Source of the DNA: Mobula hypostoma | Taxonomy: Eukaryota | Length of the DNA stretch: 64,000 nt | Direction: 5' to 3' | Assembly (NCBI RefSeq): GCF_963921235.1 | Contig: NC_086097.1 | Coordinates: 129,334,001-129,398,000 of the forward strand | Part shown: positions 1,743 through 63,900 of the stretch, piece after piece | Position numbering within the stretch: position 1 is the first letter of the stretch | Layout: each line of letters opens with the position of its first letter | The notes under the pieces: generated by a model | Databases searched by the model: none | Seen by the model: the letters and a program-made list of their open reading frames with translations, nothing else | Told to the model about the DNA's origin: nothing | Position numbers and translations under genes: made by a program

Positions 1743-2089
1743 CATACATTGCCTTGGTTTACTCTTTTATGTTTGCACGAGTTCCAAATAAAATCATCAG
1801 TGTGTCATGGGGTTTTCATTTTGTCATTTTTCTCAGCTTCTTCCTTGTGTTGTCAACTCACTCAGAGCTCCAGTGATGAATGCCTCCTCTCAGGTGCTAG
1901 AGGATATTAAACAAGCATCAAAACCAATGCAGAGTTTCAACCCTGAAACATTGACAATTCCTTCCACCACAGACATTGCTCATCCCTCTGAGCTCCTCCA
2001 AAAGATTGTTTGCTACTCAAGATTCCAGCGGCGGCAAATTCTCGTACCTCAATGCACCAAAACCAGACCAGCCTCACAATCAACAGGCA

Positions 2090-2216
2090 AGAGTAAATCT
2101 GCAGATGCTGGAAATCCAAGCAACACACACAAAATGCTGGAGGAACTCAGCAGGCAGGCAGCATCTATGGAAAAATCTACAGTCAACGTATTGGGCCGAG
2201 ACCCTCCATCAAGACC
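2090..2216 (-). mobile_element. Penelope pLTR-derived short repeat with degenerate hammerhead motif
   Basis: tctgcagatgctggaaatcc...atgctggaggaactcagcagg.caggcagcatct, a block recurring about ten times in the window. Minus strand 2181-2216 reads GGTC-TTGATGG-AGGGTCTCGGCCC-AATA-CGTT-GACT. Confidence 0.75.
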
Positions 2217-2594
2217 TTTGAAATCTGAAATAAGAATAGAAAATAATGGAAACACTCAGTAAGGCAGACAGTTGAAAGAGAAGCAGGGTTAATGTTCCAA
2301 GTCTGAAATGTTTATAGTTCTGAAGATGGTTTTTGGATATGAAACATTATTTCACCTATGCAGGGATTTATTTGCAGGAATAATATTGGCAAATAGAGAA
2401 AGAAAAATTCGTATTTAGCTCAACTCATCCATGACAATGATTTTTTTTAATCATTAGTGTAACTGTGGCCTCATATTCACATGCTCACAACAAGTAGATC
2501 AGGATTACATGCACACCAAACTTTAGTGGTGCCGTTGAGAAAACAACACCAGTCAAAGAAAACTGCATAATATTTAACTCTGTAATATTGTGTG

Positions 2595-15999: not shown

Positions 16000-17047
16000 A
16001 TGCTTATGACTGTGAGGCTAAGCATGGCTCCAATGCCAAACTTGAGTTTGCTAACAACACCACTGCCGTTGGCTGAATCAAAGATGGTGACAATTCTGCA
16101 TATAGGAGGAAGATTGAAAATCTGGCCGAGTGGTGCCACAACAACTCAGTAAAACCAAGGAGCTGATAATTGATTATAGGAGGAAGAAACTGCAGGTCCA
16201 TGAGTCAGTTCTCATACGGGGATCAGGGGTGGAGGGAGTCAGCAACATTTAAATTCCTCAGCGTTATCATTACAGAGAGTCTGTCCTGGGTCCAGCATGG
16301 CAGTGTCTTTACAACAAAGGCACAGCAATGTCTCTACTTTCTTAGAAGTTTGCCAAGATTCGGTATGTCATCTAAAACTATGCCAAACTTCTATAGATGT
16401 ATGGTGGAGAACACATTGATTGGCTGCATCATGACTTGGTATGGAGACACCAATGCACTTGAACAGAAAAGCCTACAAGAAGTAGTGGATGCAGCCCAGT
16501 CCATCACAGGTGAAGCCCACCCCACCGTCAAGCACATCTACATGGAACGCCGTCACAGGAAAGCAGCGTCCATTATCAAGGAGCCCCCACCATCCAGACC
16601 ATGCTCTCTCGTCCACTGCTGCCATCAGGAAGGAGGGAGAGGAGCCTCAGGTCCCACACGAGCAGGTTCAGGAATAGTTATTACCCCTCAACCATCAGGC
16701 TCTTCATTCATGAGGATATCTTCATTCAACTTCACTGAACTGATACCACAAACTATAGACTCACTTTCAAGGACTTTTCAACTTCTGTTCTTATTGCTTA
16801 TTTATTTATTTGTTTATTTATTTATTTATTTACTTATTGTTACTATTTTGGTCTCTTTCTCTCTTTTTGTATTTGCACAGCTTGCTGTCTTGTGCATGTT
16901 GCTTGTTTGTCTTTGTTGTGTCCTGTTTGTCAATGATCCTGTTGTGTTTCTTTGTATTTATTGTGAATGCCCACAAGAAAATGAATCTCAGGGTTGTGTA
17001 TGGTGACATATATGTACTTAGATAATAAATTTACTTTGGACTTTGAA
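16000..17047 (+). mobile_element. Rex1/Babar LINE 3' fragment
   Basis: FKFLSVII..SLSW..H...TKAQQCLYFLRSL..F...NFYRCMVENTLIGCIMTWYG (ORF 16170); tail gataataaatttactttggactttga. Confidence 0.85.
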
Positions 17048-18653
17048 ATTTTTAACTTAATACTTCAGAACCCAACCATTGCTTTATATGGTTAATATCA
17101 TAGTTTCAAACTCTCTGCCAGAAGGTTGGCAGAAGTCCCTGGTGAAATGGCATAAATGGCAGAGCTATTTCCATCCTGCCTCTCAGTGCTGGAGTGGTCT
17201 CACTGATCTTATAGAATGAGATCAGAAGAAAAAAGAACAAGTCTCTGTCATATCCCGTTCTAGTAAATGAATTGCTCAAGCTAAATGCTACTTGACATGC
17301 ATAAGAAAACACTTTGCTACCTCAGTGTTGAAGCTCTCTTTGCTCACAACACCTCTGAGCATGACGTTAGTGGCTGCCCTCACAGGTCACCCTGGGCCTC
17401 ATTGTCAGATTATGTTGCTAATGCTCCTTTTGATCTTCTGTTATGTTAAATAGATAAATAGAGAAAAAGGAAAAGAAAAGAAAATCACAAAATGAGGGGG
17501 TGATTTTACACAAAATTTAATCTAATTAGTTAACCTTACTGTAGGTAAGTCCAAGAAAATCAAAGATCTAAAAGAGACTGTAACAATTTTTAGATGTACC
17601 TGATGGCCAAAGACATTTTAAAAACCATTAAAATGGATCTAATTCCCTGTAAGCTATCAAAATATTATTTTTAAAATTAAACTGAAAACCAACAAGTAAT
17701 TAAAATGGTAAGCGTACATTTGACTCCATTCAAATGTATGGGCCCACTGTGCAGAAACCAGCCCTCCACTGCATAAAGTTGAGAGTGGAGGTGCACTGAA
17801 CTGGGTCCTCTCCTCTGCATGGTAGTGCTTTATCACTGGGCTCTATGGTAAGTCTAGCTGGAGAGGACCATCCCATCTGTGTAGAAGTCTGAAATTTCCT
17901 AAAGCATGAATGGCTGCCAATCGAAAGTTCCCCAATGACATTTAGTCACCCTCACCAATTTCCTCCAGAAAGGTTTGCAAAAATATCCTCTATTTTGGAC
18001 AGAGGGTATTGATCTACTTTTAGTACTGGGTTGATGGTGACCTTAAAATCCACCACAGGTCCTGACAAACCCATTCATCTTAGCTACTGAAACCACTGTC
18101 ATTCCCCCTGGGCTTCACTTAACCTAAGAAGGAATACTTTCAGCCTCCATGCGACGTTGAAATTTTGTTCACACCCACTTTCATTCCTGACTGTATTTCA
18201 ATTGTTTCTCTGTCTGCTGTTTCCATTGGTACAGTAATTTCAACTGCTCGTTTAAATGTTAAGTTTTGCTTCAGTTAGGAGCCATTTTTGAATACTTTCC
18301 TGTAAGGTTCCACAAACTAAGCAATCTCTCAGTGCATCATTAAGCCCATTACCAAACTGACAATGATCAGACAACTTTTTCAATTCAGCCATGTATGCTC
18401 AAATGGACTCCACTTCCTTTTGATTCCTTTTATGAAACCTAAAGTGTTCTGCAATCAACAATGGTGTCAGTTCTAAATGTTCCTGCATTACTTTCATTTT
18501 GACCAGTTTGGTTGAATCATTCAAACTTCAAAGCAAACTGTTAATTTTTTCACCCAATGCACTCAGCAAAACTGGCACTCACTTTTCATTTGCTTCAAAA
18601 TACTGCTCCATTTGTTCTGTATAAAGCAGCCAGTTATCTTTTGTGTAATCAAA

Positions 18654-19203
18654 TAGAAACATAGAAAACATAGAAAATAGGTGCAGGAGTAGGCCATTCG
18701 GCCCTTCGAAGGGCCATATCTAACTCCCTCTTAAATATAGCCAATGAACTGGCCTCAACTGTTTCCTGTGGCAGAGAATTCCACAGATTCACCACTCTCT
18801 GTGTGAAGAAGTTTTTCCTAATCTCAGTCCTAAAAGGCTTCCCCTCTATCCTCAAACTGTGACCCCTCGTTCTGGACTTCCCCAACATCGGGAACAATCT
18901 TCCTGCATCTAGCCTGTCCAATCCCTTTAGGATTTTATACGTTTCAATCAGATCCCCCCTCAATCTTCTAAATTCCAACGAGTACAAGCCCAGTTCATCC
19001 AGTCTTTCTTCATATGAAAGTCCTGCCATCCCAGGAATCAATCTGGTGAACCTTCTTTGTACTCCCTCTATGGCAAGGATATCTTTCCTCAGATTAGGGG
19101 ACCAAAACTGCACACAATACTCCAGGTGTGGTCTCACCAAGGCCTTGTACAACTGCAGTAGTACCTCCCTGCTCCTGTACTCGAATCCTCTCGCTATAAA
19201 TGC
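18654..19203 (-). mobile_element. Young, 5'-truncated CR1 LINE inserted in Gypsy gag
   Basis: IARGFEYRSREVLLQLYKALVRPHLEYCVQFWSP...LRGDLIETYKI; about 98.5% identical to 27241-27735; (TCTATGTTT)-like tail. Confidence 0.95.
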
Positions 19204-19474
19204 ATCTATGTTTTCAATGTAGCCAGCCATTTCTGCTTATTTAAACATTTATTATTATTATCGCCTGGTACACACTGTTTATAAACCTGTGAATTCATCT
19301 ATATTCTGCCTGGTTTTTTACTCTAATGTCTCTGTCCATTCCCAAAGAAGCACGTGTTGCACTGTTTTTTCACTCATTCATTTCTTGCTGCGCTTTCTCC
19401 AAACTCTTTCATCTCACTGTGCGACAACTGGTACATAGTCATCTTGGGTTTGTTTAAAACTTCTTCATTGCCAC

Positions 19475-27100: not shown

Positions 27101-28163
27101 TTAGAAACATAGAAAATAGGTGCAGGAGTAGGCCATTCGGCCCTTCGAGCCTGCACCGCGATTTATTATGATCATGGCTGATCATCCAACTCAGAACCCC
27201 GCCCAGCCTTCCCTCCATACCCCCTGACCCCCGTAGCCACAAGGGCCATATCTAACTCCCTCTTAAATATAGCCAATGAACTGGCCTCAACAGTTTCCTG
27301 TGGCAGAGAATTCCACAGATTCACCACTCTCTGTGTGAAGAAGTTTTTCCTAATCTCGGTCCTAAAAGGCTTCCCCTCTATCCTCAAACTGTGACCCCTC
27401 GTTCTGGACTTCCCCAACATCGGGAACAATCTTCCTGCATCTAGCCTGTCCAATCCCTTTAGGATCTTATACGTTTCAATCAGATCCCCCCTCAATCTTC
27501 TAAATTCCAACGAGTACAAGCCCAATTCATCCAGTCTTTCTTCATATGAAAGTCCTGCCATCCCAGGAATCAATCTGGTGAACCTTCTTTGTACTCCCTC
27601 TATGGCAAAGATGTCTTTCCTTAGATTAGGGGACCAAAACTGCACACAATACTCCAGGTGTGGTCTCACCAAGGCCTTGTACAACTGCAGTAGTACCTCC
27701 CTGCTCCTGTACTCGAATCCTCTCGCTATAAATGCCAGCATACCATTCGCCTTTTTCACCGCCTGCTGTACCTGCATGCCCACTTTCAATGACTGGTGTA
27801 TAATGACACCCAGGTCTCGTTGCACCTCCCCTTTTCCTAATCGGCCACCATTCAGATAATAATCTGTTTTCCTATTTTTGCCACCAAAGTGGATAACTTC
27901 ACATTTATCCACATTAAATTGCATCTGCCATGAATTTGCCCACTCACCCAACCTATCCAAGTCACCCTGCATCCTCTTAGCATCCTCCTCACTGCTAACA
28001 CTGCCACCCAGCTTCGTGTCATCCGCAAACTTGGAGATGCTGCATTTAATTCCCTCATCCAAGTCATTAATATATATTGTAAACAACTGGGGTCCCAGCA
28101 CTGAGCCTTGCGGTACCCCACTAGTCACCGCCTGCCATTCTGAAAAGGTCCCGTTTATTCCCA
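27101..28163 (-). mobile_element. Young 5'-truncated CR1 LINE with an uninterrupted RT C-terminal frame
   Basis: ORF 27172-28218: SGVPQGSVLGPQLFTIYINDL, KFADDTKL, LVRPHLEYCVQFWSP, with no stops; 3' stem-loop gggccgaatggcct and short repeat tail. Confidence 0.95.
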
Positions 28164-28439
28164 CAAATTGTATTGCTTTTAAAGTTGAACTGGATATAAC
28201 CTGATTGGTATAATGCAAGGAGCGAATAACATCAGAGCAAATTGGGAAGGCAGTGAGTTGAGACTATATAAAAATAAAATCAGAATGTAATGAAAATGCA
28301 TAACACGGCAGGCAGCAATGGTAGAGGGAGAAAGATATTTTTGCTCAATGACTTTTCATCATAACTAGGAAATGTGGGAAATGAAATAAGATCAAAGTTG
28401 CAGTGAATGAGATCGAAAGAGGCCTGTGAGAGGGTGGAG

Positions 28440-28552
28440 CAACACAGCCGACGCACCTCCTCCTAGAGATACTGCCTGGCCTGCTGCGTTCACCAGCAAC
28501 TTTGATGTGTGTTGCTTGAATTTCCAGCATCTGCAGAATTCCTCATGTTTGC
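28440..28552 (+). mobile_element. Penelope pLTR-derived short repeat (second subfamily)
   Basis: gatactgcctggcctgctgcgttcaccagcaactttgatgtgtgttgcttgaatttccagcatctgcaga. Confidence 0.7.
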
Positions 28553-28799
28553 GTGGGAAAGGGTGGAGACTGGGTACAATGCTGACGGAGAGAGTGATGA
28601 CTAGCTCAAGGTGTGACAGAGCGATGAGCAAGGAGGAGGCAAAGAATGCAATCTCAACATATCAGGAGAGGGAGTCAATAAAAGGAAATGTGAAATACAG
28701 ACTGGAATGACTGCTCTTCAGAAACTGCAAAACTGTTGAATCCAGCAGCTGTGATGTACCGAGTCCAGAGATGACATACAATTCATTGAGCCTACATTG

Positions 28800-29199: not shown

Positions 29200-29850
29200 A
29201 AAGAAGAAAGAATGAGAGTAGATTGAATAATTAAAGTGACAGGTGAGGAGCCACTGTAACATCAGAAACAGGTTATTGGGGTTGATAATGTGATCACCAG
29301 CCCTTTATCCATCTTGGGCCCTCAACATCCGCTGTTGTTTATAAAGAAAATAACGGAAGTGGAAGAGCTAACAGGGAGTGTAGAAGGAACTATCCCTGAC
29401 ACATTTTGAAAGGAGAGGTGATGTTGTGTCTGTTGTTGACATCACTTTGAATGTGTCTGGAATTATGGAAGATGATTTTTTGAACATGGGGGCTAGTCAA
29501 TTGGAAGTGAGCGCAAGGAAAACCCTGATGGGACTTTCGAGAGACTTTGAGACTTTACAGTGCCCATGGTCTGTTCTTATGAAATCACGGTATTGCTTTG
29601 CACTGTTGTAACTATATGTTATAATTATGTGGTATTTGTCAGTTTTTCAGTCTTGGTTTGTCTTGTGTTTCTGTGATATCATTCTGGAAAAACATTGTAT
29701 CATTTCTCAATGCATGCATTACTAAATGACAATAAATGAGGACTGTGTGTCCCCATAATCTAATCTAATCTAATCTAATCTAATCTAATCTAATCCTTGC
29801 TCTGGATGGGAGGATAGTTGGTGGGGAGGCAGGGTGAGAATAGAACTGCA
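29200..29850 (-). mobile_element. Degenerate Penelope-like (Neptune-type) RT-to-endonuclease linker fragment
   Basis: Minus strand reads like RVFLALTSN..APMFKKSSSIIPD; the aaccct|atccttg junction is split by the 29528 insertion. Confidence 0.5.
29528..29795 (+). mobile_element. Retroposon 3' end with (TAATC)n tail
   Basis: aataaatgaggactgtgtgtcccca followed by about 8 TAATC units; homologous to 4535-4770. Confidence 0.8.
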
Positions 29851-29851
29851 G

Positions 29852-30062
29852 GAGCACACACAAAATGCCAGAAGAACTCAGCAGTCCAGGCAGCATCTAT
29901 GGAAAAAAAGTACAGTCGATGTTTCGGGCCAAAACCCTTCCGCAGGACTCAGTGGCCCAAATGTCGACTGTACTTTTTTCCATAGATGCTGCTTGGCCTG
30001 CTGAGTTCCTCCAGCATTTTGTGTGTGTTGCTCGGATTTCCAGCATCTGCTGATTTTCTCTT
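29852..30062. mobile_element. Palindromic pair of Penelope pLTR-derived repeats with central hammerhead-like motif
   Basis: The left arm cacacaaaatgccagaagaactcagcag..ccaggcagcatctatggaaaaaaagtacagtcga is mirrored by tcgactgtacttttttccatagatgctgc..ggcctgctgagttcctccagcattttgtgtg. Confidence 0.85.
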
Positions 30063-31279
30063 GTTTGTAGGACTGCAGGAAATGGATTTGAAGCATTTGA
30101 GAGGTCTGCTAGCCATGGCTGAAGGGAAGCACACGAATGAGACCTATCGGAAGCACCGATGTAGAAGGTGGGATTGTAAGGACAAATGGAATATGAAAAA
30201 CCAGGAGAATGGACAATTGATCTTACAAGCCACAAACCATGACCACAGCATCAGATGTTTAATTCTAGTGTGCCTGCCATGTTTCCAAAGCCACCTTTTA
30301 CTCTATGCCATACCTGAGCTAAGAAAGCAACAGGTGGTGGTCTGTGGAAGATTTCTTTAAGAAATATTGCACCCGGGTAGACAGTTCCTGCTCTCTGGCC
30401 TGGCTCTTGGATTTTGTTAACCTGCAGTGTATGCCTTCTTGACAAGTTCCTCTTCAGCCATGCAGCCAGCACCTTTCTCTGTTAACACGATTAGCAAAAC
30501 TGGTACTTTCATTATCTTCCTCACCCACATAAGAGTTTAACCTGGAAAGTTAGTGGCACTCATAAACGCACATTATCCCATCACTGACTGGCAGGACGAT
30601 GCACTCTGTGGATGCCGGTCCACAGCACCCAAAGCCCAAGGTTTCTGACTTGTGGAGGACTTCCCTTCACGTGCTGCATCAACGCAGAACAGAGGACAGG
30701 TAAATCTGGGGCTGGCACCTGGGTCGAGGGATCATGTAGGTAGGTGCAGTGACTTAGATATCAAATGGCGTTTCACAGCAAGGCATACCTGCCATCCCTC
30801 TAAGGTAGTTAGGATTTCAATGAGTGTTGGGGAGGGAGGAGTGGATGCGAGTCAAGGAGAGTGCTGAATGAGTTGAGATTATCTGGACAAAAGAATGATT
30901 GGTGAGAGTGGCTTGCATTACTGAATCAGGGGTCTGTGATTGGGTTGAGCCAGGAGATTGTGGTTGAGTGAGTAGCAACATGTGCATGTGAATCAAAAGA
31001 TTGGTGGGTTGTAAAGATATGTATTGGAAGAGGGGATTGAAATAGGCTGGGTTCCTGAAAGCGTAACCAGGTATCTCTGTGAGTGGGGTCCAGGATGTTT
31101 GTGACCTTCCCAAGGAGACTCCTAGAGTCAGAAGCACTCTGAACTTTGCATTGGGTTGTGATCAGCCAATCACATGCAAGCCTCATACAAGCTGGATTAA
31201 CTTCACCTGTTAATTCAAAATGGGGTCATTTTGTGGGGTTCTAATGCAGGAGGCATTATTTGCAGTGGTAGATGCCGGA

Positions 31280-40204: not shown

Positions 40205-40800
40205 TTCCTAGGGAGAGCACCTCCACTCCATCTACAAAATATGGATTTTCCTGATGGCCACCCATGCTAATTCGTGTTCTCATTCCTGTTCTGACATATT
40301 GGTCTATGGCCTCCTCTTCTGCCATGATGAGACAACTCTCAGGGTGGAGGAGCAACACCTCATATTCTCCAGCCTGATGGCATGAGCATCCATTTTCCCT
40401 TCTGGCAAATTTTGGCTTTCCCTCTTTTCTTTTCTTCTATTCCCCACTCTGGCCTCCTAACTCTTCTCCTTACCTACCTATCACTCCCCCGGTGCCCCTC
40501 CTCCTCCCCTTTCTCCCATAGTCCACCCTCCTCTCTTATCAGATTCCTTCTTCTTCAGCCTTTTGCCTTCTCCACCTATCACCTCCCAGCTTCTTACTTC
40601 AACCCTGTCCCCCACCCACCTCGCTTCACCTATCACCTTCAAGCTTGTCCTCCTTCTCTACCTAACCCCTCTCTTGCCACCTTTCTATTCTGGCATCTTT
40701 CTCCTTGCGCCCCAGTCCTGGTGCAGTCCCAAAATGTTGATTGATTCACTTCCGTAGATGCTGCCTGACCTGCTGAGCTCCTCCAGCATCTTGTAAGTTT
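40205..40800 (+). mobile_element. Penelope-like (Neptune-type) 3' end: endonuclease C-terminus, pyrimidine tract, pLTR repeat
   Basis: YGLLFCHDETTLRVEEQHLIF-like coding remnant, then a CT-rich tract, then agtcctggtgc...gatgctgcctgacctgctgagctcctccagc. Confidence 0.75.
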
Positions 40801-41274
40801 TGTTCCTCGGGATGTACCAGCTCGCTGTCACATCCCAAATATGTTCATGTAGGTCAGTTAATTGGCTACTGTACATTGTAGATGAGTGGTAGAATCTGGG
40901 AGGGGCTGAGGAGAATGTGGGGAGAATTTACTCAGCTGTGAACTTACTCGACCGAGCTGTATAGACCTGAGAGTTCATTGTTCCTCTACAGTTTGTGGTG
41001 CACTGGCTGCTCACAGGCATTAGGTGATAAAGGAATGCTGTCCCGGTCTTCTGCAAATCAGGACGCACAAGAGACTGCACATGCTGTGTCTCAGACCAAA
41101 ACATTGACTGTCCACTTCCCTCTGTAAGTGTTGCCAGACCTGTTGAATTCCTCCAGCATCAACTCGGTTGCACCACTCATTTCTTTCCAGGAATATAAAT
41201 ACGATAGTTGTGCTTAAGTGGAAACAGATATAAAAGTGGCGTTTAAGAAGCTATTGAACATGAGGATGCAAGGA

Positions 41275-41442
41275 ATTCTGCAGATGCTGGAAACCCAAAG
41301 CAGCACACACACAGCATGCTGGAGGAACTCAGCAGGTCAGGCAGCATCTGTGCAAATGAACAGCAGTTGGCGTTTTGGGCCGAGACGCTTTCCATAGATG
41401 CTGCCTGACCTGCTGAGTTCTCCCAGCATTTTGAGTGTGTAC
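41275..41442. mobile_element. Palindromic pLTR-derived repeat
   Basis: atgctggaggaactcagcaggtcaggcagcatct ... agatgctgcctgacctgctgagttctcccagcat. Confidence 0.8.
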
Positions 41443-41725
41443 GTGTGTTGCTTTCAACATGCAGGGAATGGAAGGATCTTGTGCAGGCAAAAGGGATGTA
41501 GTTTAAATTGGCAGACGTTGTTGGTCAGAGGGCATAACCTGTGCCCTGCTGTACTGATTTACATTGGATACCTGCTGAAAACTGCACACAGCAGGGCAGT
41601 GTAAGCCCCAAGGGCATTGTTTTAAGGTGAGGATATGGTTTTAGAGGGTGTCTGGGGAGGTTATTTTTCACCCAGAGTGATTGGAACCGGCAGCATCTGC
41701 ATTAGAAGGTGGTAGAGGCAGATAC

Positions 41726-42617
41726 CAAGACGGAAGCGGTTTGCCAGTTGAGTACCAGTGTCCCACCCACTCTACCTGCCTTCACTGTTGGTGATGAAAA
41801 GCTGCCAGTAGTGCCATCTTTCAAATATCTGGGGAGCATTCTCTCTGAGAATAGCGGCATTGACAACGACATCCAGAGCCATATTAAACAGGCATCAGCT
41901 GCCTTTGAGATACTTCGGCGTAGAGTTTTTCAGAACAGGAGCCTTCATCCCTCCACAAAGGTCACTGTATACTAAGCAGTCTGTGTCACCACCCTCCTTT
42001 ATAGCTGTGAAGCTTGGGTAATCTACAGCCGTCACATCAAGTTCTTGGAGCGCTTCCACATAAGCTGCCTCCAGCGCATCCCGGGAATTACCTGGCATGA
42101 GCGGGTGCCTCACACTGAAATACTTGTAAAGACCAACTGCGGGAGTATTGAGGCCATGATCACCCAGCGTCAGCTGCAGTGGCTGGGACACGTGATAAGG
42201 ATGCCCCCATATCAGCTACCCCGCAGAGTGTTATACAGCCTGCTGCATCATGGTCGACGCTCAGCTGGAAGTCCGAAGAAGTGCTATAAGGATCAGATGA
42301 AGAATGCTTTAAGGAAGTGCAAGATCAGACCCGAGGACCTGGAGGAAGTTGCTGCTGACCGTACCACTTGGCGACAACTGTGTAGGGACAGGGTTTGTAT
42401 TCTGGAGATGGAAAGAACAACCAGAAGACACCAGAAGAGAGCCAGGAGAAATGCAGCCATGATTGCCACCACTACCACATATACATGTCCCACCTGCAAT
42501 AGAGCTTGTGGGTCCAGGATAGGACTGTATAGTTGTCAAAGATCTCACTGTTAAAGGAGTGGACATCGTCATCGGATTTCGATGGACAACCGAAGAAGAA
42601 GAAGAAGAAGAAGAAGA
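41726..42617 (+). mobile_element. RTE-clade LINE, 5'-truncated, (GAA)n tail, 12-bp TSD
   Basis: VPSFKYLGSIL..., LERFHISCLQRI, QLQWLGHVIRM and a C-terminal CPTCNRACGSRIGLYS..RSH. TSD agaggcagatac at 41714-41725 and 42618-42629, inside an old CR1 fragment. Confidence 0.92.
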
Positions 42618-44568: not shown

Positions 44569-46683
44569 TAGACAATAGACAATAGGTGCAGGAGTAGGCT
44601 ATTCAGCCCTTTGAGCCAGCACCGCCATTCACTGTGATCATGGCTGACCATTCACAATCAGAACCCTGTTCCTGCCTTCTCCCCATATCCCTTCACTCCG
44701 CTATCTTTAAGAGCTCTATCTAACTCCTTCTGGAAAGAATCCAGAGAATTGGCCTCCACTGCCTTCTGAGGCAGAGCATTCCACAGAACCACAACCCTCT
44801 GTGTGAAAAAGTTTTTCCTCAACTCCGTTCTAAATTGTCTACCCCTTATTCTTAAACTGTGGCCTTTGGTTCTGGACTCCCCCAACGTCGGGAACATGTT
44901 TCCTGCCTCTAGCGTGTCCAATCCCTTAATAATCTTATATGTTTCAATCAGATCCCCTCTCATCCTTCCAAATTCCTGTGTATACAACCACAGTCGCTCC
45001 AATCTTTCAACATATGACAGTCCCCGCCATCCCGGGAATTAACCTCGTGAACCTACACTGCACTCCCTCAAAGACTAGAATGTCCTTCCTCAAATTTGGA
45101 GACCAAAACTGTACACAATACTCCAGGTGTGGTCTCACCAGGGCCCTGTACAACTGCAGAAGGACCTCTTTGCTCCTATACTCAACTCCCCTTGTTATGA
45201 AGGCCAACATGCATTAGCTTTCTTCACTGCCTGCTGTACCTGCATGCTTACTTTCAGTGACTGATGAACAAGGACACCTAGATCTCGTTGTACTTCCTCT
45301 TTTCCTAACTTGACATCATTCAGATAGTGATCTGCCTTCCTGTTCTTGCCACCAAAGTGGATAACCTCACATTTATCCACATTAAACTGCATTTGCCATG
45401 CATCTGCCCACTCACCCAGCCTGTCCTAGTCACCCTGCATTCTCATAACATCCTCCTCATATATCACACTGCCACCCAGCTTTGTGTCATCTGCAAATTC
45501 GCTAATGTTACTTATAATTCCTTCATCTAAATCATTAATTTATATTGTAAATAGCTGCGGTCCCAGCACCTAGCGGTACCCCACTAGTCACTGCCTGCCA
45601 TTCTGAAAAAGACCCATTAATCCCTACTCTTTGTTTCCTGTCTGCCAACCAATTTTCTATCCATGTCAGTACCCTACCCCCAATACCATTTGCTCTCATT
45701 TTGCCCACTAACCTCCTATGTGAGACCTTATCAAAGGCTTTCTGAAAGTCCAGGTACACTACATCCACTGGCTTTCCCATGTCCATTTTCATAGTTACAT
45801 TCTCAAAAAATTCCAGAAGATTAGTCAAGCATGATTTCCCCTTCATAAATCCATGCTGACTCGGACCTATCCTGCTACTGCTGTCCAAATATGCCGCTAT
45901 TTCATCTTTTATAATTGATTCCAGCATCTTCCCCACCACTGATGTCAGACTAACTGGTCTATAATTGCCTGCTTTCTCTCTCCCTCTTTTCTTAAAAAGT
46001 CGGATAACATTAACTACCCTCCAATCCACAGGAACTGATCCTGAATCTATAGAACATTGGAAAATGATTACCAATGCATCCACGATTTCTAGAGCCACCT
46101 CCTTACGTACCCTGGAATGCAGACCATCAGGCCCTGGTGATTTATAAGCCTTCAGTCCCATCAGTTTAATGCCATTTTCTGCCTGATGCGAATTTCCTTC
46201 CGTTCCTCTGTTACCCTTGGTCCTCTGGCCACTATTACATCTGGGAGATTGTTTGTGTCTTTCCTAGTGAAGACAGATCCAAAGTACCTGTTCAGCTCAT
46301 CTGCCATTTCCTTGTTCCCCATAATGATTTCACCCGTTTCTTTCTTCAAGGGCCCAACTTTGGTCTTAACTAATTTTTTCCTCTTCACATACCTAAAGAA
46401 GCTTTTACTATCCTCCTTTATATTCTTTGCTAGCTTACCTTCGTACCTCATCTTTTCCCCCGTATTGCCTTTTTAGTTATCTTCTGTTGCTCCTTAAAAG
46501 TCTCCCAATCCTCTGGCTTCCCATTCATCCTTGCTATGTTATACTTCCTCTCTTTTATTTTTATACTGTCCTTGACTTCCCTTGTCATCCACGATCGCCC
46601 CTTTCTCCCCTTAGAATCTTTCTTCCTCTTTGGAATAAACTGATCCTGCACCTTTTGTATTATTCCCAGAAATACCTACCATT
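44569..46683 (-). mobile_element. CR1 LINE, about 2.1 kb ORF2 remnant, 9-bp TSD
   Basis: KSPGPDGLH, GNYRPVSLTSVVGKMLE, QHGFMKGKSCLTNL, VDVVYLDFQKAFDKV and LVRPHLEYCVQFWSP over several frameshifted ORFs. TSD acctatcaa at 44560-44568 and 46684-46692. Confidence 0.93.
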
Positions 46684-51079: not shown

Positions 51080-52261
51080 TTTCACAAAAGGAGCACAAAG
51101 ATACAAGCCTGCTGATGAAACAGATGCAACTTTCTCATCCTTTTGTTCAGCTGGGATTGGGCACACGCAAACTACGCGCCAACAAAAAATAAATAAATCA
51201 AACGGAACTTGCTGTCATTTTCGCCACCTCTCCCTGCCGCGCCAGCCTAAGGGAGCCGATGTTTTATTTTAAAACAGGGATTGGCATAAACACTATTGTC
51301 TGATTTCTCATAGCTAAGTACCTCTGTGAACTCAACGTCAGCATCTGGTTGGTATTACACGCTGACAGAGGGAGTAGCGGGGAGGGGGTAGTGGGTTCGA
51401 ATATAACAGGGCTCCAGCGTTACCACGGCGTTTCTCTGACAGACAGGAATACAGGAGCCTGTTCCAAAACACACCATGGGTATCCTAGCCAGGGAAGGGA
51501 CTCAGTGCAAGTGTTTTTTTCTCCCCAAGGCAGATGAAGAAATGTGTTAACAGTGCTAATGGTGCCAAGTATTATGCTTCGTTAAAAATTTAATCACCTG
51601 CAAGTGCGAAGCAAGTGCAAAGCAATCATGTTGTAATTAGCACAGCAATTAACACATTTTTTCCCTGATACCGGTCTGCATTATAAAGAAGTGCATGATT
51701 GCCATACTTAATGCTTTTGACAGATTTGAGTTTCCTATCAGGAAGTATTAATTTTGTCAAATTGAAATTCGGACTTGGTGACTGATGTCAATTTTGACTG
51801 CGCTACGCTACTCCACGTGTAACAGTGCACCAAGAAGACATGAAAATTCATTTCAAGAACAGAGGAAATCGTAAATGAGTTTCTTTCTCTCTCTCTCTCT
51901 CTCTCTCTCTTGGCCCCCCCCCCCCCCCGCAGTCCTTGGCCTGCTTTCTCCCAGGTCTATGGTGGGAGATGAGGTTAGTGCAGGGACCACTTTGCGACAG
52001 GTAGGGAAGGTGATGCTAGACAGGAGCAGCCAGGTGGGTTGGTTCTTCAATGGAGCTATTTCCATATTTTTCATTGGACTCCACTTGCCTCCATACAGAC
52101 TCGCGATCCTCTCTGCCTCCAGGCCTGGGCTTCCCATGAGTCAGTGAAAATACTATAGCTTGTTCAATGAGACTTTGAGAACATCTCTGATGCAAAGAAA
52201 TACAAAGACAGTAGGACTCTAATTAACTGTCTTTCTACCAATAAACAATACAGTTTATAAA

Positions 52262-52432
52262 GACACACAGGGAGAGTGCCGATGCTGGAATCTAGAGCAA
52301 CAAACGATCTGCTGGAGGAACTCAATGCATCCAGCAGCATCTGTGGGAGGAAAGGAATGAGCAGGTTTGACAATTCCTTTCCTCCCACAGATGCTGCTTG
52401 ACCTATTAAGATCTTCCAGCATATTGCTTGTT
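52262..52432. mobile_element. Palindromic pLTR-derived repeat with a perfect 26-bp inner stem
   Basis: agcagcatctgtgggaggaaaggaat (52333-52358) / attcctttcctcccacagatgctgct (52373-52398). Confidence 0.85.
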
Positions 52433-52440
52433 AATGAATT

Positions 52441-52505: not shown

Positions 52506-52805
52506 CTTTAGATAGGCACAAATATGCATCAATAAATCCAGGAAATTTTTGTTTTTACTTATTGCTGTTGCAGTTACCCGCCATCCTGCTCTGGTGAAGA
52601 TTTTGGGACCTCAAGACCAGGAATTTAGGTTTGACCATGTTTAGAAGGTGTTTAAGCACATACATTTTCTTCCTGGGGACAGGGGAGTCTGCAGATGCTG
52701 GAGTCCTGGTGCTGGCATTGAGCTGAAATACCTACCCTCCTTCACCCTCTACAGATGCTGCCTGACCTATTGAGTTCCTTCAGCAAATTGTATTTTCCCA
52801 CATTT

Positions 52806-54651
52806 TGTAATGGTCCAGTCCGTGAAGTCTGCATTCCAGTTCCTGGTCCGGTCCGTGGATTCCGTATTCCAGCTATTCCTTTCTCCCCTTATTCCGTTGG
52901 GCGCCTTAATTGAGGCACCTGATTCTCGTTTCGGGCTGGCAACATGAATAGCTCTGGGGTCCAGTGATTCCTTGCTGGAACATCCTCGTCAGTAACCTCA
53001 TCAGTAGCCTCCTCCGAATCCCCGTCAAGTTAACCCGCCGCATCGAGGGCTTGATGCTTCTTGGAGCCTTTTCGTGTCAAGATAAAGAACAGTCTATTGT
53101 TGTGTGGTTTTTTCTGTCCGTGTTCACTCCTCCGCTGGGTAAGTCCAGCCCCTGAGCGGGGAGTGGTCTCAGTGTTTTGTGCCCAGTATCTAAGAAGAAT
53201 CTCGGCTCTATGTCCTGTGTCCAAAGAGGAGCCCTGGCTCAGTGTTCCATGTCTTGTGCCTAAGTCAAGTTTGAGCCTAGTCCAAGCCGAGAGTCAAGTT
53301 CCAAGTCCAAGCCAGGTCTGATTCAAGTCCAAGCCAGGTCAGAGTCAAGTCCTAGCCAAGTCCGAGTCCTAGTCCAAGTCCAAGCCAAGAGCCAAGTCTA
53401 GACCCTGGTGCCCAGTCCCCGCCAAAATCCGAATCCCGAGTCATGACCTGTGTTCCCTGTCAAGTTCAAGTCCCAAGTCCAAGTCCAGGTTTCCTGTTTG
53501 TCACTCTTCGCCTACCTTCATGTTATCATTTTGTCCTCGCTCCTTGGCTTCCCTAGCATTCTTAATAAACATAGTCCAGTTCCTATTACTTCAGTGTCTG
53601 TGTCTCGCATTTGGGTCCGCTTCCATCGCCCCCTTACGACAGAACAGCCCAGTCAAACATGGACCCAGCGACACAGACACTGTCGGTAAACTCTCACCAT
53701 TCAGGGTTCCCTCTTGTTGAAAACACCCCACCTGCCCAGGTCCTTGATAATCCGGGAAAGCCTGTTGGGGGGGAGGTACTGTCATGGTCTGATCCATGAA
53801 GTCCACATTCCGGTTCATGGTCCAGTCCATGGATTCCGTATTCTGGCTATTCATTTTTTCCCTTGTTCCGTTGGATGCCTTAATTGAGGCACCTGATTTT
53901 CATTTCAGGCTGGCAACATAAATAGCTCTGGGGTCCAGTGATTCCTTGCTGGACCGTCCTCGTCAGTAACCTTGTCAGAACACCCGTCAAGTTAACCTGC
54001 TGTGTCAAGGGCTTGCTGCTTCTTGGAGCCTTTTCATGTCAAGATAAAGAACAATCTGTCATTGTGTGGTTTTGTCTCTCCGTGTTCTCTCCTCCACTGG
54101 GTAGGTCTGGCCATTTGCCACTACCCTGAGGGGGAACGGTCTCAGTGTTTTGTGCCCTGTGCCTCAGAAGAGTCCCAAGTCTATGTCCTGTGTCCAAGGA
54201 GGAGCCCCAGCTCCGTGTTCTGTGTCCTGTGTCTGTCAAGCCTGAGCCTAGTCCAAGTCGAGAGTCAAATTCCAAGTCCAAGTTGAGAGTCAAATTCCAA
54301 GTCCAAACCAAGACAGAGTCACGTGTCAAGTCCAAGCCAGGTCAGAGTCAAGTGTCAAGTCCAAGCCAGGTCAGAGTCAAGTGTCAAGTCCAAGCCAAGA
54401 GCTAAGTCTAGACCCGGGTGCCGAGTCCCTGACAAGGCCTGAGTCCTGAGTCATGACCTTTGTTCCCTGTCAAGTTCAAGTCCCAAGTCCAAGTCCAGGT
54501 TTCCAATTTGTCACTCTTCGTCTACTTTCATGTTATCATTTTGTCCTCGCTCCTTGGCTTCCCTAGCATTCTTAATAAACATAGTCCAGTTCCTAGTACT
54601 TCAGTGTCTGTGTCTTGCATTTGGGTCCACTTCCATTGCCCCCTTATAACA
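52806..54651 (+). mobile_element. Non-autonomous Gypsy (sushi/chromovirus-like) element: two LTRs around a 138-bp internal region
   Basis: LTR1 52806-53641 and LTR2 53780-54651 both TG...CA, with a TATA-like cataaata and aataaa. The internal part has a gag-like start ATGGACCCAGCG (MDPA) and a PPT gggggggaggtac. Near-TSD cattt / cactt. Confidence 0.88.
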
Positions 54652-55610: not shown

Positions 55611-56284
55611 TTGAAATACTCTAAAAGCATTAACAAACACTTCAATAAACATGTCTAAACATTTAAATGTCTAAAAAAAATGGTATTAGCTAACTGCTAG
55701 CACTGACTGCATTGATACTTACAAGTCTGATTTTGAAATTACAAGATGCAACTATGTAAACATTGGCAGCTTGCTATTAGAAAAGAGTGCACAGTAGGGA
55801 TCTACGTGACAAAAATAGTCTGGAAATTGATCTTGTAGGGACAATGGAAGGTTTCATATTGCACATATGGATATAAACGTACTTATCCAAAAATACACCT
55901 TGCAGAGACACTAACTCATGGATAGCAAATCAGTGGATAAGAAGAAGTGAGTGCAGGCAGCTCCATAGGTATGGAGAGGTTGGACGAACTCGGTACCAGG
56001 CCTTGCCTAAATTTAGAATTTTGGAGATGGCTTATTGATAATCAAAATCTTAAATTTCTTTGACACTTTAAGCTAAAGGTGTCAAAACATTCCGAGATGA
56101 TCCATAGGAGCGTTGTCAATTTAAACCTGACATTGAGCCATGTAAGGAGATAGTAAGTACTATATCCTTCATAACTCAATGTTAATTTTGTGGCTTCAAA
56201 TCACAGATCTTTTTTCTTTTGTAGAGTTGGTGAAAATAATTGCTCGGGTGTTGCCATTTACCTCTTCACTCTATCCCCTGCAAC

Positions 56285-56830
56285 AGCCAGGATCTCCCTG
56301 AGGCCAGTTACATTAATTCCGTTTACCACTCCTACACCAACATGCTTGTTCATGGCCGCCTCTGCTGTAAAATTGAGGCTAGACACAGATTAGAGGAACA
56401 ACACCTCATATTCCACCTGGGTGCTCTCCAACCCAGTGTATGAACATCAATTCCTCTAACTTCCAGTAACCACTCCCTTCTGTCCATTTCACCACCTTCA
56501 CCCATTGCCCTTTGTTTTCTCTTATCCCACTGGCCCCACCAATCCATCTGTTACCCCTCGCCTGCCCCTCAACCTGCCATCACCCACACATTCCTCTCTT
56601 TATTCCATGGCCCACTCCTATCAAATTCCACCTTCTTTGGCCTTTTGATTCTTCTATGTATCACCTCCCCAATTCCAGCACTATTTCAGCTATCCCCGGC
56701 CCCATCTGCATATAACCACTCTTCATCTGGATCCACCTATCACCCACCAGCTCACACTTTTACACTGCTTCTCTCCTCTTTTACCTTCCAGTCTTGATGA
56801 GGTGTCTTGATGAGGTGTCTTGACCAAAGC
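56285..56830 (+). mobile_element. Penelope-like (Neptune-type) 3' end
   Basis: QDLPEASYINS..HSYTNMLVHG...RHRLEEQHLIFHLGALQP (ORF 56240), a pyrimidine tract, then agtcttgatga (hammerhead-core-like). Confidence 0.75.
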
Positions 56831-57890: not shown

Positions 57891-58129
57891 CATTTGTCTC
57901 TCAATCTCGCCTCATTTCCATTCTATCGCCACCCCCTGTTTCTGTTCCTTCTTCTCGGTTTCTATCCCACTACCTTCTCCTCACTTCAATAAAAACAGTT
58001 CATTTTCCAATTCCCCATCTGTTTCGACTTCAACCTTTTTAAAAATTTTTGCATGGCTAATCCCCGAATGGGTGCGTACAGTAAGCAGATCCTACTTTCA
58101 TTAGGCGAAATGTTTGAGAAGGCAGAAAC

Positions 58130-58735
58130 AAAAACAGAAAAAGCCAGAAATACTCAGCAGATCAGGCCGCAGCTTCGAGAAGGAAAACAGGGTTAGCACT
58201 TCAGGACTTTCACCAGGACTGAAAAGGAGACAAATGAGGTTTGTAAAGCTGCGGCAATACACAAAGTGCCAGAGGAGTTCAGTGTGCCAGGTAGCCTGGA
58301 CACTTGACATCAAGACCCTTCAGCGGACTGAAAGAAAGAGAAGAGATACCCAGTTTAAAAAGATGGAGAGAATGGTTGGCAGGCGATAGATGGATCTAGG
58401 TAAGGGAAATGATGTGGCTAAGGGAGGAGTATATTTCAAAATGATGACAGAAGCAGGGACTTGATAGGTGGAACTGAGAAAGGGTTAAAGATGATGAAAT
58501 CTGATAGAATTGGAAGAATGAGCATGGGATAAAGGGTGGGGAGGGAAACCAGTGAGGGGAGTGTGTGAGGGTGGGGGGCAAATGGAGAGGGTGGGTGGGG
58601 AAAAGAGAGGTTGGCAGTGGGAGATTATTGAATCAGGAAGAGAACGAAAAGAAAAATGTGGGAAAAGGGGCAGAGGGAGAGCACTTACGCATAGTTAGAG
58701 AATTCAGATTTCATGCCACCAGGTTGTAAAGCTGC
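58130..58735 (-). mobile_element. Penelope-like 3' end/pLTR, degenerate
   Basis: Purine-rich mirror of 40350-40800 (agttagagaattcagatttcatgccaccaggttg; gacccttcagcggactg). Confidence 0.65.
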
Positions 58736-59679
58736 AGCGAGGGTGGGAGAAGGGAAGACTAAACCACAGTTAGGCACGTAGTTTTACTCCTCATCTTAAA
58801 GTACGGAAGAGAGGTCAAAATTTTACAGGGAATATTGCAAATCTTAACCAATGGGCTGGCGTAAGCCAATGGTTACAATTGGACTCAAATGTGGTCAAAT
58901 ATTCTGGAACGAGTGTTTGAGCTCAGAAGCAAAGAAAACTTTTGTAGTTTTCCTAGGGAACCCTTCGGGGTTAAGGAGGAATTGTTTCCACTCCAGTTCT
59001 GTTGGTTGATAAGGTCAGTGGGTTAGGAGGTGCTGGATGGAGCAAGATGTGTAGGCATTCTTTCACAATGAAGGACTGATATTGGCTTTGAAGAAAGAAG
59101 TCATTGTATTTGAGAGAGAAAATCAAAGATTTCACTTTTGTGAAGAAAGTGGAGATTGAATGAACACAAAACACTGCAGGAAGTCAGTGTGTCCAGCTGC
59201 ACCTATAGAGGGATATGAACAGTTAATGTTCTTCCTACACCAAAGTAGGATCATGCAGGATTTACAAACTTTCTGACATTGTGATAGTATCTAATGTGAA
59301 ACTATTTTAACTGGCAGGTGGGAATGTAAACACAGACTAAGGGCACTTAGCGAAAGAGCAGAGACTTCCCCCAAGGTTGAGGAGTCCACAACTGGGAGGC
59401 AATAGGATTAGGGTGAGAGGGAAAAATTTGGAAACGGTGGTGAGTTTTTGAAATGAACTGTCAGAGAAAATGGTTAGACAGGCACATAGAATCATCTAAG
59501 AATCCTTTGGATAGGTACATGAAAGGGCGGAGCTTAGAGGCATATGAACTGAAGGCAGAAACCTGAGACTGGACAGGTGGGCTCCATGGTTGGCATGTAT
59601 GGGTTGGGTAGAAACGTCTGCATCCATGCTCTAAATCATATCTGTGCTGTATTGTTCTACGACTCACTAAAATCACTAG

Positions 59680-60920: not shown

Positions 60921-63900
60921 ACTCTACGTGGTAAGGGAGAATAACTTGTTATAATTGGGGCTACACTGCCTGAAAGGATGATGGAATAAACCAATAAAGA
61001 AATCAATAAGGACTTCCAAAAGATTATTGGAAAAATATTTGAAAATCAGAAATATATCCCTGGGCTATGAATAATGGGAATAAGTGGATAGTAGTTTTGA
61101 GAAGCCAGGCCGCTCACAATGAACTGAATGGCCTCTTGCTATGCTATGTGTTGGACCAGAAGTGTTTGCCAGTTTGGATCATTTATTTGTTGCATCTAAG
61201 ACCTGGTGGTAATCACTGCTGCCAGGCTGATTGGGGGATACGCAAAGCATTACCAATGCTCATCTGCAAGACACAATGCAGCAAAGCGGAGCAAATTAAT
61301 GAATTAATGTTTTGCAACAGTTTCACGGGCCATGATCACAACACAAGTACAGCTACAAACTGTTCCATCAGGGCCTTCCGTTTGGAAGGTCCTGTTACTG
61401 CACTGGCACACGACGTGTTACACATGGGGTGTTTTTCTGCTTCCCTCACTTCTTCATTTCCTGTGATCTCTCGACATCACTCTGACTACCATATTGTGTG
61501 ATAAAAATTTGTCAACACCTCTTTCTCTTTCTGTGGCAATGAAATTGCCCTGTATAAATGCCATGTCTTTGTTAAAATACCTTCTGGTGGAATGGCCCTG
61601 TATGTGAGATATCAAAGCCTCAGCGTGGGATAGAAAGCGAAATGTGTTAATCTTAGTCCCCGACACCAACCCTAACCTGACAGACAAGTTACACTCTTTG
61701 TGAGTGCATGCTCTGTGTATTGTATACAATCGGCACTGTGGGCACATCATCTGTTTTGTATGTCACCAACGAAACACCCCTTTCTAGAAACCTTTGACAT
61801 TAGTTAATTTAATTGCATAGCAAACATGAAATGCCTGGGAAGTGGTAATGTTTTGTAGCAGTCGTTTAACACTCATTCATTTATCACAAACGTGTAAAAC
61901 CCAAGATGTTTCACTTTCCTACCAAATTAAGACATACTCTCACAATCATTTAGGAGGATTAGTCACAGATATAACCTGCCTACAATGATACGGGATCTGT
62001 GTATTTGTTCACACGCAGCCTCGTTTATTTTCCAATTGAACAAGCTTGGGTCTATTGTTGGATAACTAGCAAAGATATATATTTTTAAATTATTTGATCT
62101 AACATCAATTTATTTTAAATCCAATGCACATCTTGCTTTAAGGCAGCTTCCATGTGGCACTTGACTATATTGTTTGCACTATCTCATCTCTCAAATCTGT
62201 AAATTCCTAGATAGAGAATGCAGAGCTGATTGCATAGTATGACGGCTTCAGCCTTCTCAGAATTAGTGTAACACAGAATCATAGATTCACCATGACTACA
62301 GAAGGCCATTCAGCCCATTAAGCCCATGCCATGTCTTTGCAGAGCAATCCAGGTATTGGGAATCCATTCAATCCCATGGAGACACATGCTGGAATCTGGA
62401 ACAACAAACAACCTGCTGGATGAACTCAGCGGATCGAGCAGTATCTGTGGCGGGAGAGGAAAAGTTGACATTTTAGGTCAAAACCATGCATCAGTTCTGG
62501 TTGGAGAGAGCAGGAAAGCCACGTCATGGTCACCATACCTCGAAGAGACCTCACAGAGGAGTAGCATAATGGATTTACAAGAGACTGAAGGTGCTGAATT
62601 TGGAGCAACGATCATTCTGTTGAAAGAACTTGACTGATTGCACAGCCTTTGTGATCCTCAAACCTTGAACTATTCAACTAGGGAACAGCTTCTGCCTGTA
62701 CATTCTGTCTAAAATATTCATAAATGTTTAGGTGAAGGGTCTTGATCTGAAATGTCCACTGACCTGCTAAATTCCTCCAGCATTTTTTTTTGCACCATAT
62801 TCCAGTATCTGCTGTCTCCTGTTCCATCATGACCATGAGCACTTTTGTCAAATCTCCTCTAACCTTCTATGGTCCAAGGAAAACTAACCAGAACTTTTTT
62901 TTCCCCATTATTTATATCTTGGGTTTTATTCATAAATATTTGTTCCTTTTAAGCACTGGATCTTTACATGAGTCCTCATTAGGATGTGTTATTGGCAACA
63001 TATGCAATGGAAGGAAGAAAAAAAAATAATCATATAAAAAATGTTGTAACATTTTAAATGAACTTTTGAATATTGGATAATAGCACTTACTGCTGTGTTG
63101 CAGTAATTTTCATTTTTTTCTGTATCTAATGACTTGCTGATAGCTCAACTACTCTGTAGGGACACCAAATGATTATAGTAAGGATGAGTGATCTTTGTAG
63201 GATATGACTGATTGGTATGGTAATACACAGGCTGGGCTGTAAGCTGTTATAGACAATCAATTATACCACTGTGTGGAACTCCAATACATACTTCATTCAC
63301 AGTTTGTCAACTGGGATTATGGTATTACATTATAGCACTTAATTTTACTTAACATTCAACTCAAATTATACACAACAGCTAAATAGTTAATACGTTTGGC
63401 TACAAGACATCTTTATGGATAAAATTCAATCGAATCAAGAAGAAGCTGATTTCCTGGCAATTTGTAGCAGTTTCCAGAGGAAGTATTATATCAGTGGAAG
63501 AAAGGAAAGTTCTCAAATATTTAATTATATTATTTCAAAGATCAGTGAGAAAAGTTGGGACATGCACTCTACATTAATCAGACCATGCTGCAATATTAAC
63601 TGATAGAGCAACTGTAAAATATGAGACAAGGATTGTGTAATATTTTATAGCTTTTTATGCAAGATTAGATTAATAAATTTAAATTAGTCCAATAAAGCCA
63701 TTTAGGAACATATTATAGCCAGATAAAATGCAACAGTTATCAATTAGCATGTTCCATCTCATAAGGCCAGACATCTGATTTATTCAGTGTATCATTTAAA
63801 GGAACAAGTAAAGCGATATTAAACATAGACTCATGTCAGAACAGTTTACATTTCTGCACAATCACAATCTGTGCAAGTTCCTGCCAATGATTACATTTAT

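Follow-up and report, generated by a model that had tools for sequence, protein, structure and literature searches.

The locus at positions 29914 to 29949 raises the question whether a short, very common repeat of a ray genome descends from a self-cleaving RNA, which element carries it, and whether that RNA is cut when the element moves. We analysed it within the whole 64,000-nt stretch of Mobula hypostoma contig NC_086097.1 that surrounds it (hereafter the window) and in the 3.48-Gb genome.

The focal insertion and its relatives in the window

A first-pass annotation had read the minus strand from 29949 to 29914 as a mutated minimal type-I hammerhead. The letters are as claimed, and our sequence analysis confirmed the motif as a decayed minimal type-I hammerhead, a predicted ribozyme, in the pseudo-LTR (pLTR) of a Penelope-like element (PLE). 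Its core carries A6>C at 29942 and G16.2>A at 29920, the latter destroying the ACGU palindrome; the bond 29918/29917 matches the predicted cut site. Overlooked at first was that the motif belongs to one arm of an inverted insertion, 214 nt long and flanked by a target-site duplication (Table 1). When 240 nt around this insertion were folded, a single hairpin of about -140 kcal/mol was predicted on either strand, in which most of the motif is sequestered. Because of the two core changes and the folding of the arms into one long hairpin, the focal copy is predicted to be inactive.

Table 1 Features assigned to the element family in the window, from sequence comparison and HMM matches (positions are those of the window)
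Feature	Positions	Strand	Remarks
Target-site duplication, left copy	29841..29853	+	13 bp, 1 mismatch
Insertion arm 1	29854..29949	-	from first base of stem I to about 63 nt beyond the cut site (short tail end)
Decayed minimal type-I hammerhead	29914..29949	-	stem I AGUC/GACU, mutated core, stem II, GAAA, broken palindrome
Arm junction, 4 nt	29950..29953	.	final G directly before stem I (minus strand)
Insertion arm 2, inverted pLTR end	29954..30067	+	truncated within stem II; ends about 101 nt beyond the cut site (long tail end)
Target-site duplication, right copy	30068..30080	+	13 bp, 1 mismatch
Sister copy, mutated core and tail	2084..2218	-	sequence, HMM
Young-type tail-only copy	28449..28553	+	starts approximately at the cut site
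Sister copy	40212..40813	+	GIY-YIG C-terminal remnant 40212-40396, pyrimidine-rich pLTR body, damaged motif near 40714
Old sister copy	41086..41159	+	HMM
Second inverted pair	41248..41458	.	41391-41248 minus, 41372-41458 plus
Third inverted pair	52253..52433	.	tails only
Old sister copy	52698..52795	+	HMM
GIY-YIG C-terminal remnant and half motif	56264..56825	+	remnant 56264-56434, then 5' half of motif at 56790
Two old sister copies	58128..58340	-	HMM
Old sister copy	59163..59230	-	HMM
Old sister copy	62383..62508	-	HMM
Sister copy with internal deletion	62728..62817	+	sequence, HMM

The four sister copies that had been read beside the focal one hold up at sequence level. An HMM of motif and tail, trained partly on window copies, gave 18 matches in the window at E<=0.05 and none in each of five shuffles. 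A family-agnostic descriptor of minimal hammerheads detected 18 intact motifs across 550 kb of other genomic stretches but none in the window or in any of ten shuffles, and a stricter version returned two matches in 614 kb. An Rfam search of the window at E<=5 yielded no hammerhead match; the 13 matches to other families were all under the gathering score. The claim that every copy in the window is core-mutated and probably inactive thus needs to be narrowed: the descriptor indeed detects none that is intact, but several copies are truncated rather than mutated, and inactivity does not extend to the family. Endonuclease remnants lie upstream of the copies near 40714 and 56790; the remnant belonging to the latter shows 58% identity over 57 residues, and this copy contains a 13-bp tandem duplication.

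In some old copies, CUGAUG-C-A or CUGAUG-U-A replaces CUGAUGA-A (for instance 62455-62500, minus strand, and locus L186), which may represent a core variant subfamily or decay. The window also contains LINE reverse-transcriptase remnants, which we take to be CR1/L2-like, at 18649-19236, 27172-28263 and 45535-46263 on the minus strand and at 16170-17006 and 41976-42554 on the plus strand; the stretches 18709-19203 and 27241-27735 are 98.6% identical. Degenerate AGTCCA-type tandem repeats at 53274-53398 and 54234-54399 sit in a duplicated block (52806-53636 versus 53780-54646, 81% identity).

The carrier element and the hammerhead consensus

The earlier assignment of the repeat to a PLE pLTR is borne out by physical linkage to a Penelope-like ORF, also inside the window. 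At all 20 loci chosen on ORF DNA alone, the motif follows downstream on the same strand, with an intact hammerhead core in 17; in three of the first 30 loci, a GIY-YIG C-terminus was found upstream of the motif. Open frames of 937 residues (L167) and, flank included, 1,084 residues (L171) were recovered. The latter contains P0001, an uninterrupted frame of 1,031 residues comprising reverse transcriptase (RT) and GIY-YIG endonuclease, the first ~24 residues of which stem from flanking DNA; the likely ATG lies ~140 nt beyond the cut site. P0001 displays YIDD, a CX4CxxC linker and a CCHH-type GIY-YIG domain with an internal CxxC and two His. Pfam matches were all under the curated cut-offs (RVT_1 with E 1e-5 and 6e-5, GIY-YIG with E 0.045), the best Atlas matches were RVT_1/GIY-YIG clusters (score 0.98), and a PDB sequence search with P0001 gave no match at E<=0.01.

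As expected for a PLE, a single ORF thus encodes RT followed by GIY-YIG. Direct pLTRs from partial tandems and inverted 5'-truncated copies were also found: two direct motifs 3,396 nt apart flank a decayed ORF at L166, 22 of 30 ORF starts follow an upstream pLTR, and inverted pairs occur. Tandem units are present as well (ORF starts 3,516 nt apart, L282 and L283), so that two motifs can share one transcript. The CX2-5CxxC linker and the CCHH endonuclease that define the Neptune clade (Craig et al. 2021) are both found in P0001, and judged by these motifs the repeat appears to be the pLTR of a high-copy Neptune-type PLE. The term 'pLTR derivative' used before is correct as to pLTR origin, which ORF linkage supports, but not as to a separate non-autonomous derivative: what we examined are for the most part insertions, 5'-truncated or inverted, of an element that is autonomous and was recently active.

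The repeat had been called very common, and the genome-wide counts agree. Two non-overlapping exact patterns match 57,914 intact-core motifs, 12,484 with C11.1 (closing pair G10.1-C11.1) and 45,430 with U11.1 (G-U instead), and the reversed control of each gave none; another exact motif pattern had 2,814 matches, again with none for its reversed control. The HMM found 161 motif or tail matches in a non-random 550-kb sample of 55 stretches of 10 kb (177 in total minus 16 in the window), from which we extrapolate roughly a million such pieces genome-wide. Several young copies are identical across the aligned stretch, suggesting recent activity of the element. Since the family passes the descriptor and such identical copies exist, the window copies appear to be mostly truncated insertions of a recently active element. 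Among exact intact motifs, stem II is closed by G-U 3.6 times as often as by the canonical G-C, and the identical young copies are of the G-U type, perhaps through a CpG-type change that became fixed in the latest master element. A G-U closing pair also occurs among published PLE motifs (PMC4209133).

The proposed consensus could be reproduced in all its parts (the two catalytic boxes, stem I, stem II and the ACGU palindrome), and a compensatory change was detected between subfamilies. CUGANGA, GAAA, U16.1 and H17 are together present in 17 of the 20 ORF-selected copies and not in the focal window copy, and the family matches the minimal-hammerhead consensus described for metazoan PLEs (Cervera and de la Pena 2014, PMC4209133). 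We compared 20 young copies with 30 old-type copies, the latter collected by an exact pattern in which five positions were free and most letters of the core and stems were fixed. At the positions left free, the stem I pair 2.1-1.1 is mostly U-A in old copies (22/30) and mostly C-G in young ones (18/20). At pair 10.1-11.1, old copies have A-U (14/30) or G-U (9/30), young copies G-C (6/20) or G-U (14/20); U predominates at position 17 in the old set (24/30) and C in the young set (19/20). The palindrome positions 15.2-16.2 are C-G in 15 of 20 young copies; the 30 old ones carry CA (11), TG (14), CG (2) or TA (3), which is the decay pattern of CpG starting from CG, within a search permitting Y-R only.

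In a joint alignment of 47 distinct rows, which are related and partly preselected, 93.9% of cells pair compared to 91.4% after shuffling (reached in 0 of 500 shuffles). Only one pair is changed on both sides, and shuffles reach as many in 477 of 500 cases. The covariation probably reflects one or two evolutionary events; as judged from these sequences, its support for selection on the fold is modest but real. Clustering of 462 copies on the tail alone, with part of the input loci preselected by motif, resolved eight groups with 7% to 28% divergence. Both boxes are retained in the majority lines of these groups, weakly supported in the oldest ones, while N7, loop II, position 17 and stem pairs vary from group to group. 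We abandoned exact searching for the old subfamilies, as it returned mostly decayed young copies; the old type was resolved only by the tail-clustered consensus and a one-mismatch search (198 matches). Cluster 7 (L093, L182, L203, L229 and others) is a separate, fairly young subfamily of 17 copies with 11% tail divergence, U17, loop UCCG and a possible 6-bp stem I.

Copy ends, predicted cleavage and a candidate start site

The ends of the copies inform about the state of the RNA that was copied. Downstream of the cut site, 3' ends fall at +62 to +75 in 12 of 35 copies and at +99 to +103 in 21 of 35, that is in two clusters ~35 nt apart, in accordance with the optional 30-40-bp tail of PLEs. 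Of 30 ORF-start copies, 22 extend through the upstream hammerhead and the other eight start at +6 to +107; none has its 5' end at the cut site. Because no copy begins there and most read through, we infer that the templates were mostly uncut. Any copy that keeps the 3' motif would likewise have been reverse transcribed from 65-100 nt downstream through an uncut hammerhead.

Among copies with a break near the cut site (2,062 matches), 33 of the first 100 listed start exactly there by hand count, which could hint at some cleaved templates. Inspection of 30 such loci showed mostly inversions or deletions, with microhomology of GAC or GACT. A genomic footprint of cleavage is thus doubtful at best: the excess at the cut site is largely microhomology inversion in the inspected loci, and it has no counterpart in the 30 ORF-start copies. 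Two perfect palindromes, at G000:C1:69869169-69869216 and C1:73982128-73982175, are centred on the cut-site hexamer and lack the 5' half of the ribozyme. Double-ended inverted insertions with both arms ending at tail sites occur at L116 and L120 and in the window at 29841-30080, 41248-41458 and 52253-52433, with 13-bp duplications at L116, L120 and the focal locus; they fit extension on both strands of one cut.

Folding predictions disfavour the active hammerhead form. For young monomers, a mispaired core (-13.5 kcal/mol) is preferred over stems I and II alone (-8.7 kcal/mol), the predicted lowest-energy dimer is an extended duplex instead of a double hammerhead, and the predicted probability of stem I is 0.01 in its 190-nt context. 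The prediction of a slow ribozyme agrees with the low in vitro cleavage rates described for minimal hammerheads (PMC4209133), and with the protein-assisted cleavage and uncut template of PAc, the Poseidon element of Anolis carolinensis (Frangieh et al. 2024, PMC11167929).

We therefore consider it very probable that the focal motif is a decayed PLE pLTR hammerhead whose intact relatives are slow and conditional, likely dependent on dimers or protein, and that most transposing RNA is uncut. As in PAc, the protein of the element would nick the target and prime reverse transcription internally, at either of two sites a short way 3' of the hammerhead. RT would then copy through the uncut ribozyme and usually stop early or invert, and such events would yield the mass of short motif-plus-tail copies. 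The focal locus would be one of them, a double-ended inverted insertion. Cleavage after GUC is predicted for a minority of transcripts, via ACGU:ACGU pairing of two motifs or with help from protein.

But why do so many short insertions begin exactly at the first base of stem I? This base is possibly a transcription start. Complementing the explanation above, the hammerhead might occupy the extreme 5' end of a capped mRNA, an idea that we put forward tentatively and consider rather doubtful. Thousands of 100-135-nt insertions would then be run-off, full-length cDNAs of the mRNA 5' end, some of them carrying a G derived from the cap, and the ribozyme, by cutting off a capped leader of 32 nt now and then, would serve as a decapping or turnover switch and not as a unit-length cutter. 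Breaks right before stem I were found in 2,056 copies compared to 496 at a control position three bases on, which is the only control and was searched with one extra filter (~700 if corrected). By hand count, the base before the break is a G in 51 of the first 100 copies versus 19 of 100 at the control, but the stem I pattern itself imposed a purine at the junction. Among 30 stem I-break loci, 15 are inverted, where microhomology can supply the G, and 15 are not; 11 of the latter are flanked by 7-15-bp duplications. Extra bases are present in six of these 11 and end in G in five, but in the other five the duplication abuts without any extra base. The focal copy likewise begins at stem I after a G, and an internal promoter has been reported for the corresponding region of the D. 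virilis Penelope. On the other hand, a pyrimidine tract ending in AG lies at this position, and a splice acceptor or an RT pause could give the same pile-up; furthermore, 14 of 32 young copies sampled without bias extend at least 190 nt upstream. If transcription does start at stem I, the genome would record the start site, both RT start sites and low cleavage in vivo in tens of thousands of young copies.

Relic, retrozyme and comparison with known systems

Given mostly uncut templates, a dominant G-U variant and folding that disfavours the active form, the motif might also be a catalytically dead relic or a protein-binding hairpin that is passively copied beside the start of reverse transcription. 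Hammerhead mutants of PAc still insert in vitro (PMC11167929), and no cleavage was reported for eight of nine Xenopus dimers (2026 preprint). We nevertheless regard a dead motif as unlikely, as both boxes persist in the consensus lines of the tail-based clusters and as the subfamilies, spanning 7% to 28% tail divergence, differ at tolerant positions (N7, loop II, H17 C/U) or by pair-preserving changes. Less probable still is a separate non-autonomous retrozyme or SINE-like family amplifying via circular RNA: short motif-plus-tail inserts with their own duplications do occur and non-LTR retrozymes are reported from one chondrichthyan (10.64898/2026.07.22.740005), but the 5' ends here are widely spread and grade into the ORF, the 3' ends match the PLE tail signature, and the window contains no tandem array of short non-coding hammerhead units, the examined copies being dispersed.

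A slow PLE hammerhead carried by mostly uncut RNA remains our preferred reading, and by every testable feature of its sequence the motif is assigned to the PLE minimal hammerheads. It shares with those of metazoan PLE pLTRs CUGANGA-H, the purine-pyrimidine closure of stem II, GAAA, a palindromic 15.2-16.2 without helix III, a stem I of 4-5 bp, mostly solitary truncated copies and presence in both pLTRs; in contrast, its stem II (4 bp in young, 5 bp in old copies) is shorter than most of those listed (PMC4209133). With animal non-LTR retrozymes it has in common a type-I hammerhead related to PLE pLTRs; the retrozymes are tandem short non-coding units, whereas the copies here are dispersed truncations of a coding element (Li et al. 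2026, 10.64898/2026.07.22.740005).

As this class of motif is already known, its occurrence here is no surprise; the value lies in scale and youth. The ~58,000 exact intact motifs (at least 57,914) are several times the counts described for coelacanth (~4,000) and Xenopus tropicalis (~9,000; PMC4209133), and they come with identical young copies and near-intact ORFs. Genome data of this scale and youth can thus address whether PLE hammerheads cut in vivo and to what purpose; the copy ends point to mostly uncut templates and mark the foot of stem I as a candidate start site. Supplement file 2 of PMC4209133 makes no mention of 'shark', 'skate', 'Callorhinchus' or 'Leucoraja', and among titles and abstract openings of the literature on hammerheads and Penelope/Neptune elements in sharks and elasmobranchs we found no paper on this ray family.

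A close mechanistic parallel is PAc: reverse transcription starts at two internal sites 3' of its hammerhead, which results in an optional tail, both strands are extended, the main template is uncut RNA, and no reads end at the cut site (PMC11167929). PAc differs from the ray element in belonging to Poseidon and in having an ATG that overlaps stem II, in contrast to the distant ATG and the CX4CxxC linker found here. Protein-assisted cleavage was demonstrated for PAc, whereas for the ray element it is a prediction. The C-terminal CCHH GIY-YIG domain, the CX2-5CxxC linker, partial tandems, inverted 5'-truncated copies, the 30-40-bp tail and the pLTR hammerhead are all shared with the Neptune clade of EN+ PLEs (PMC8557442). 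That clade is described as targeting microsatellites, whereas the copies examined here are flanked by ordinary 7-15-bp duplications.
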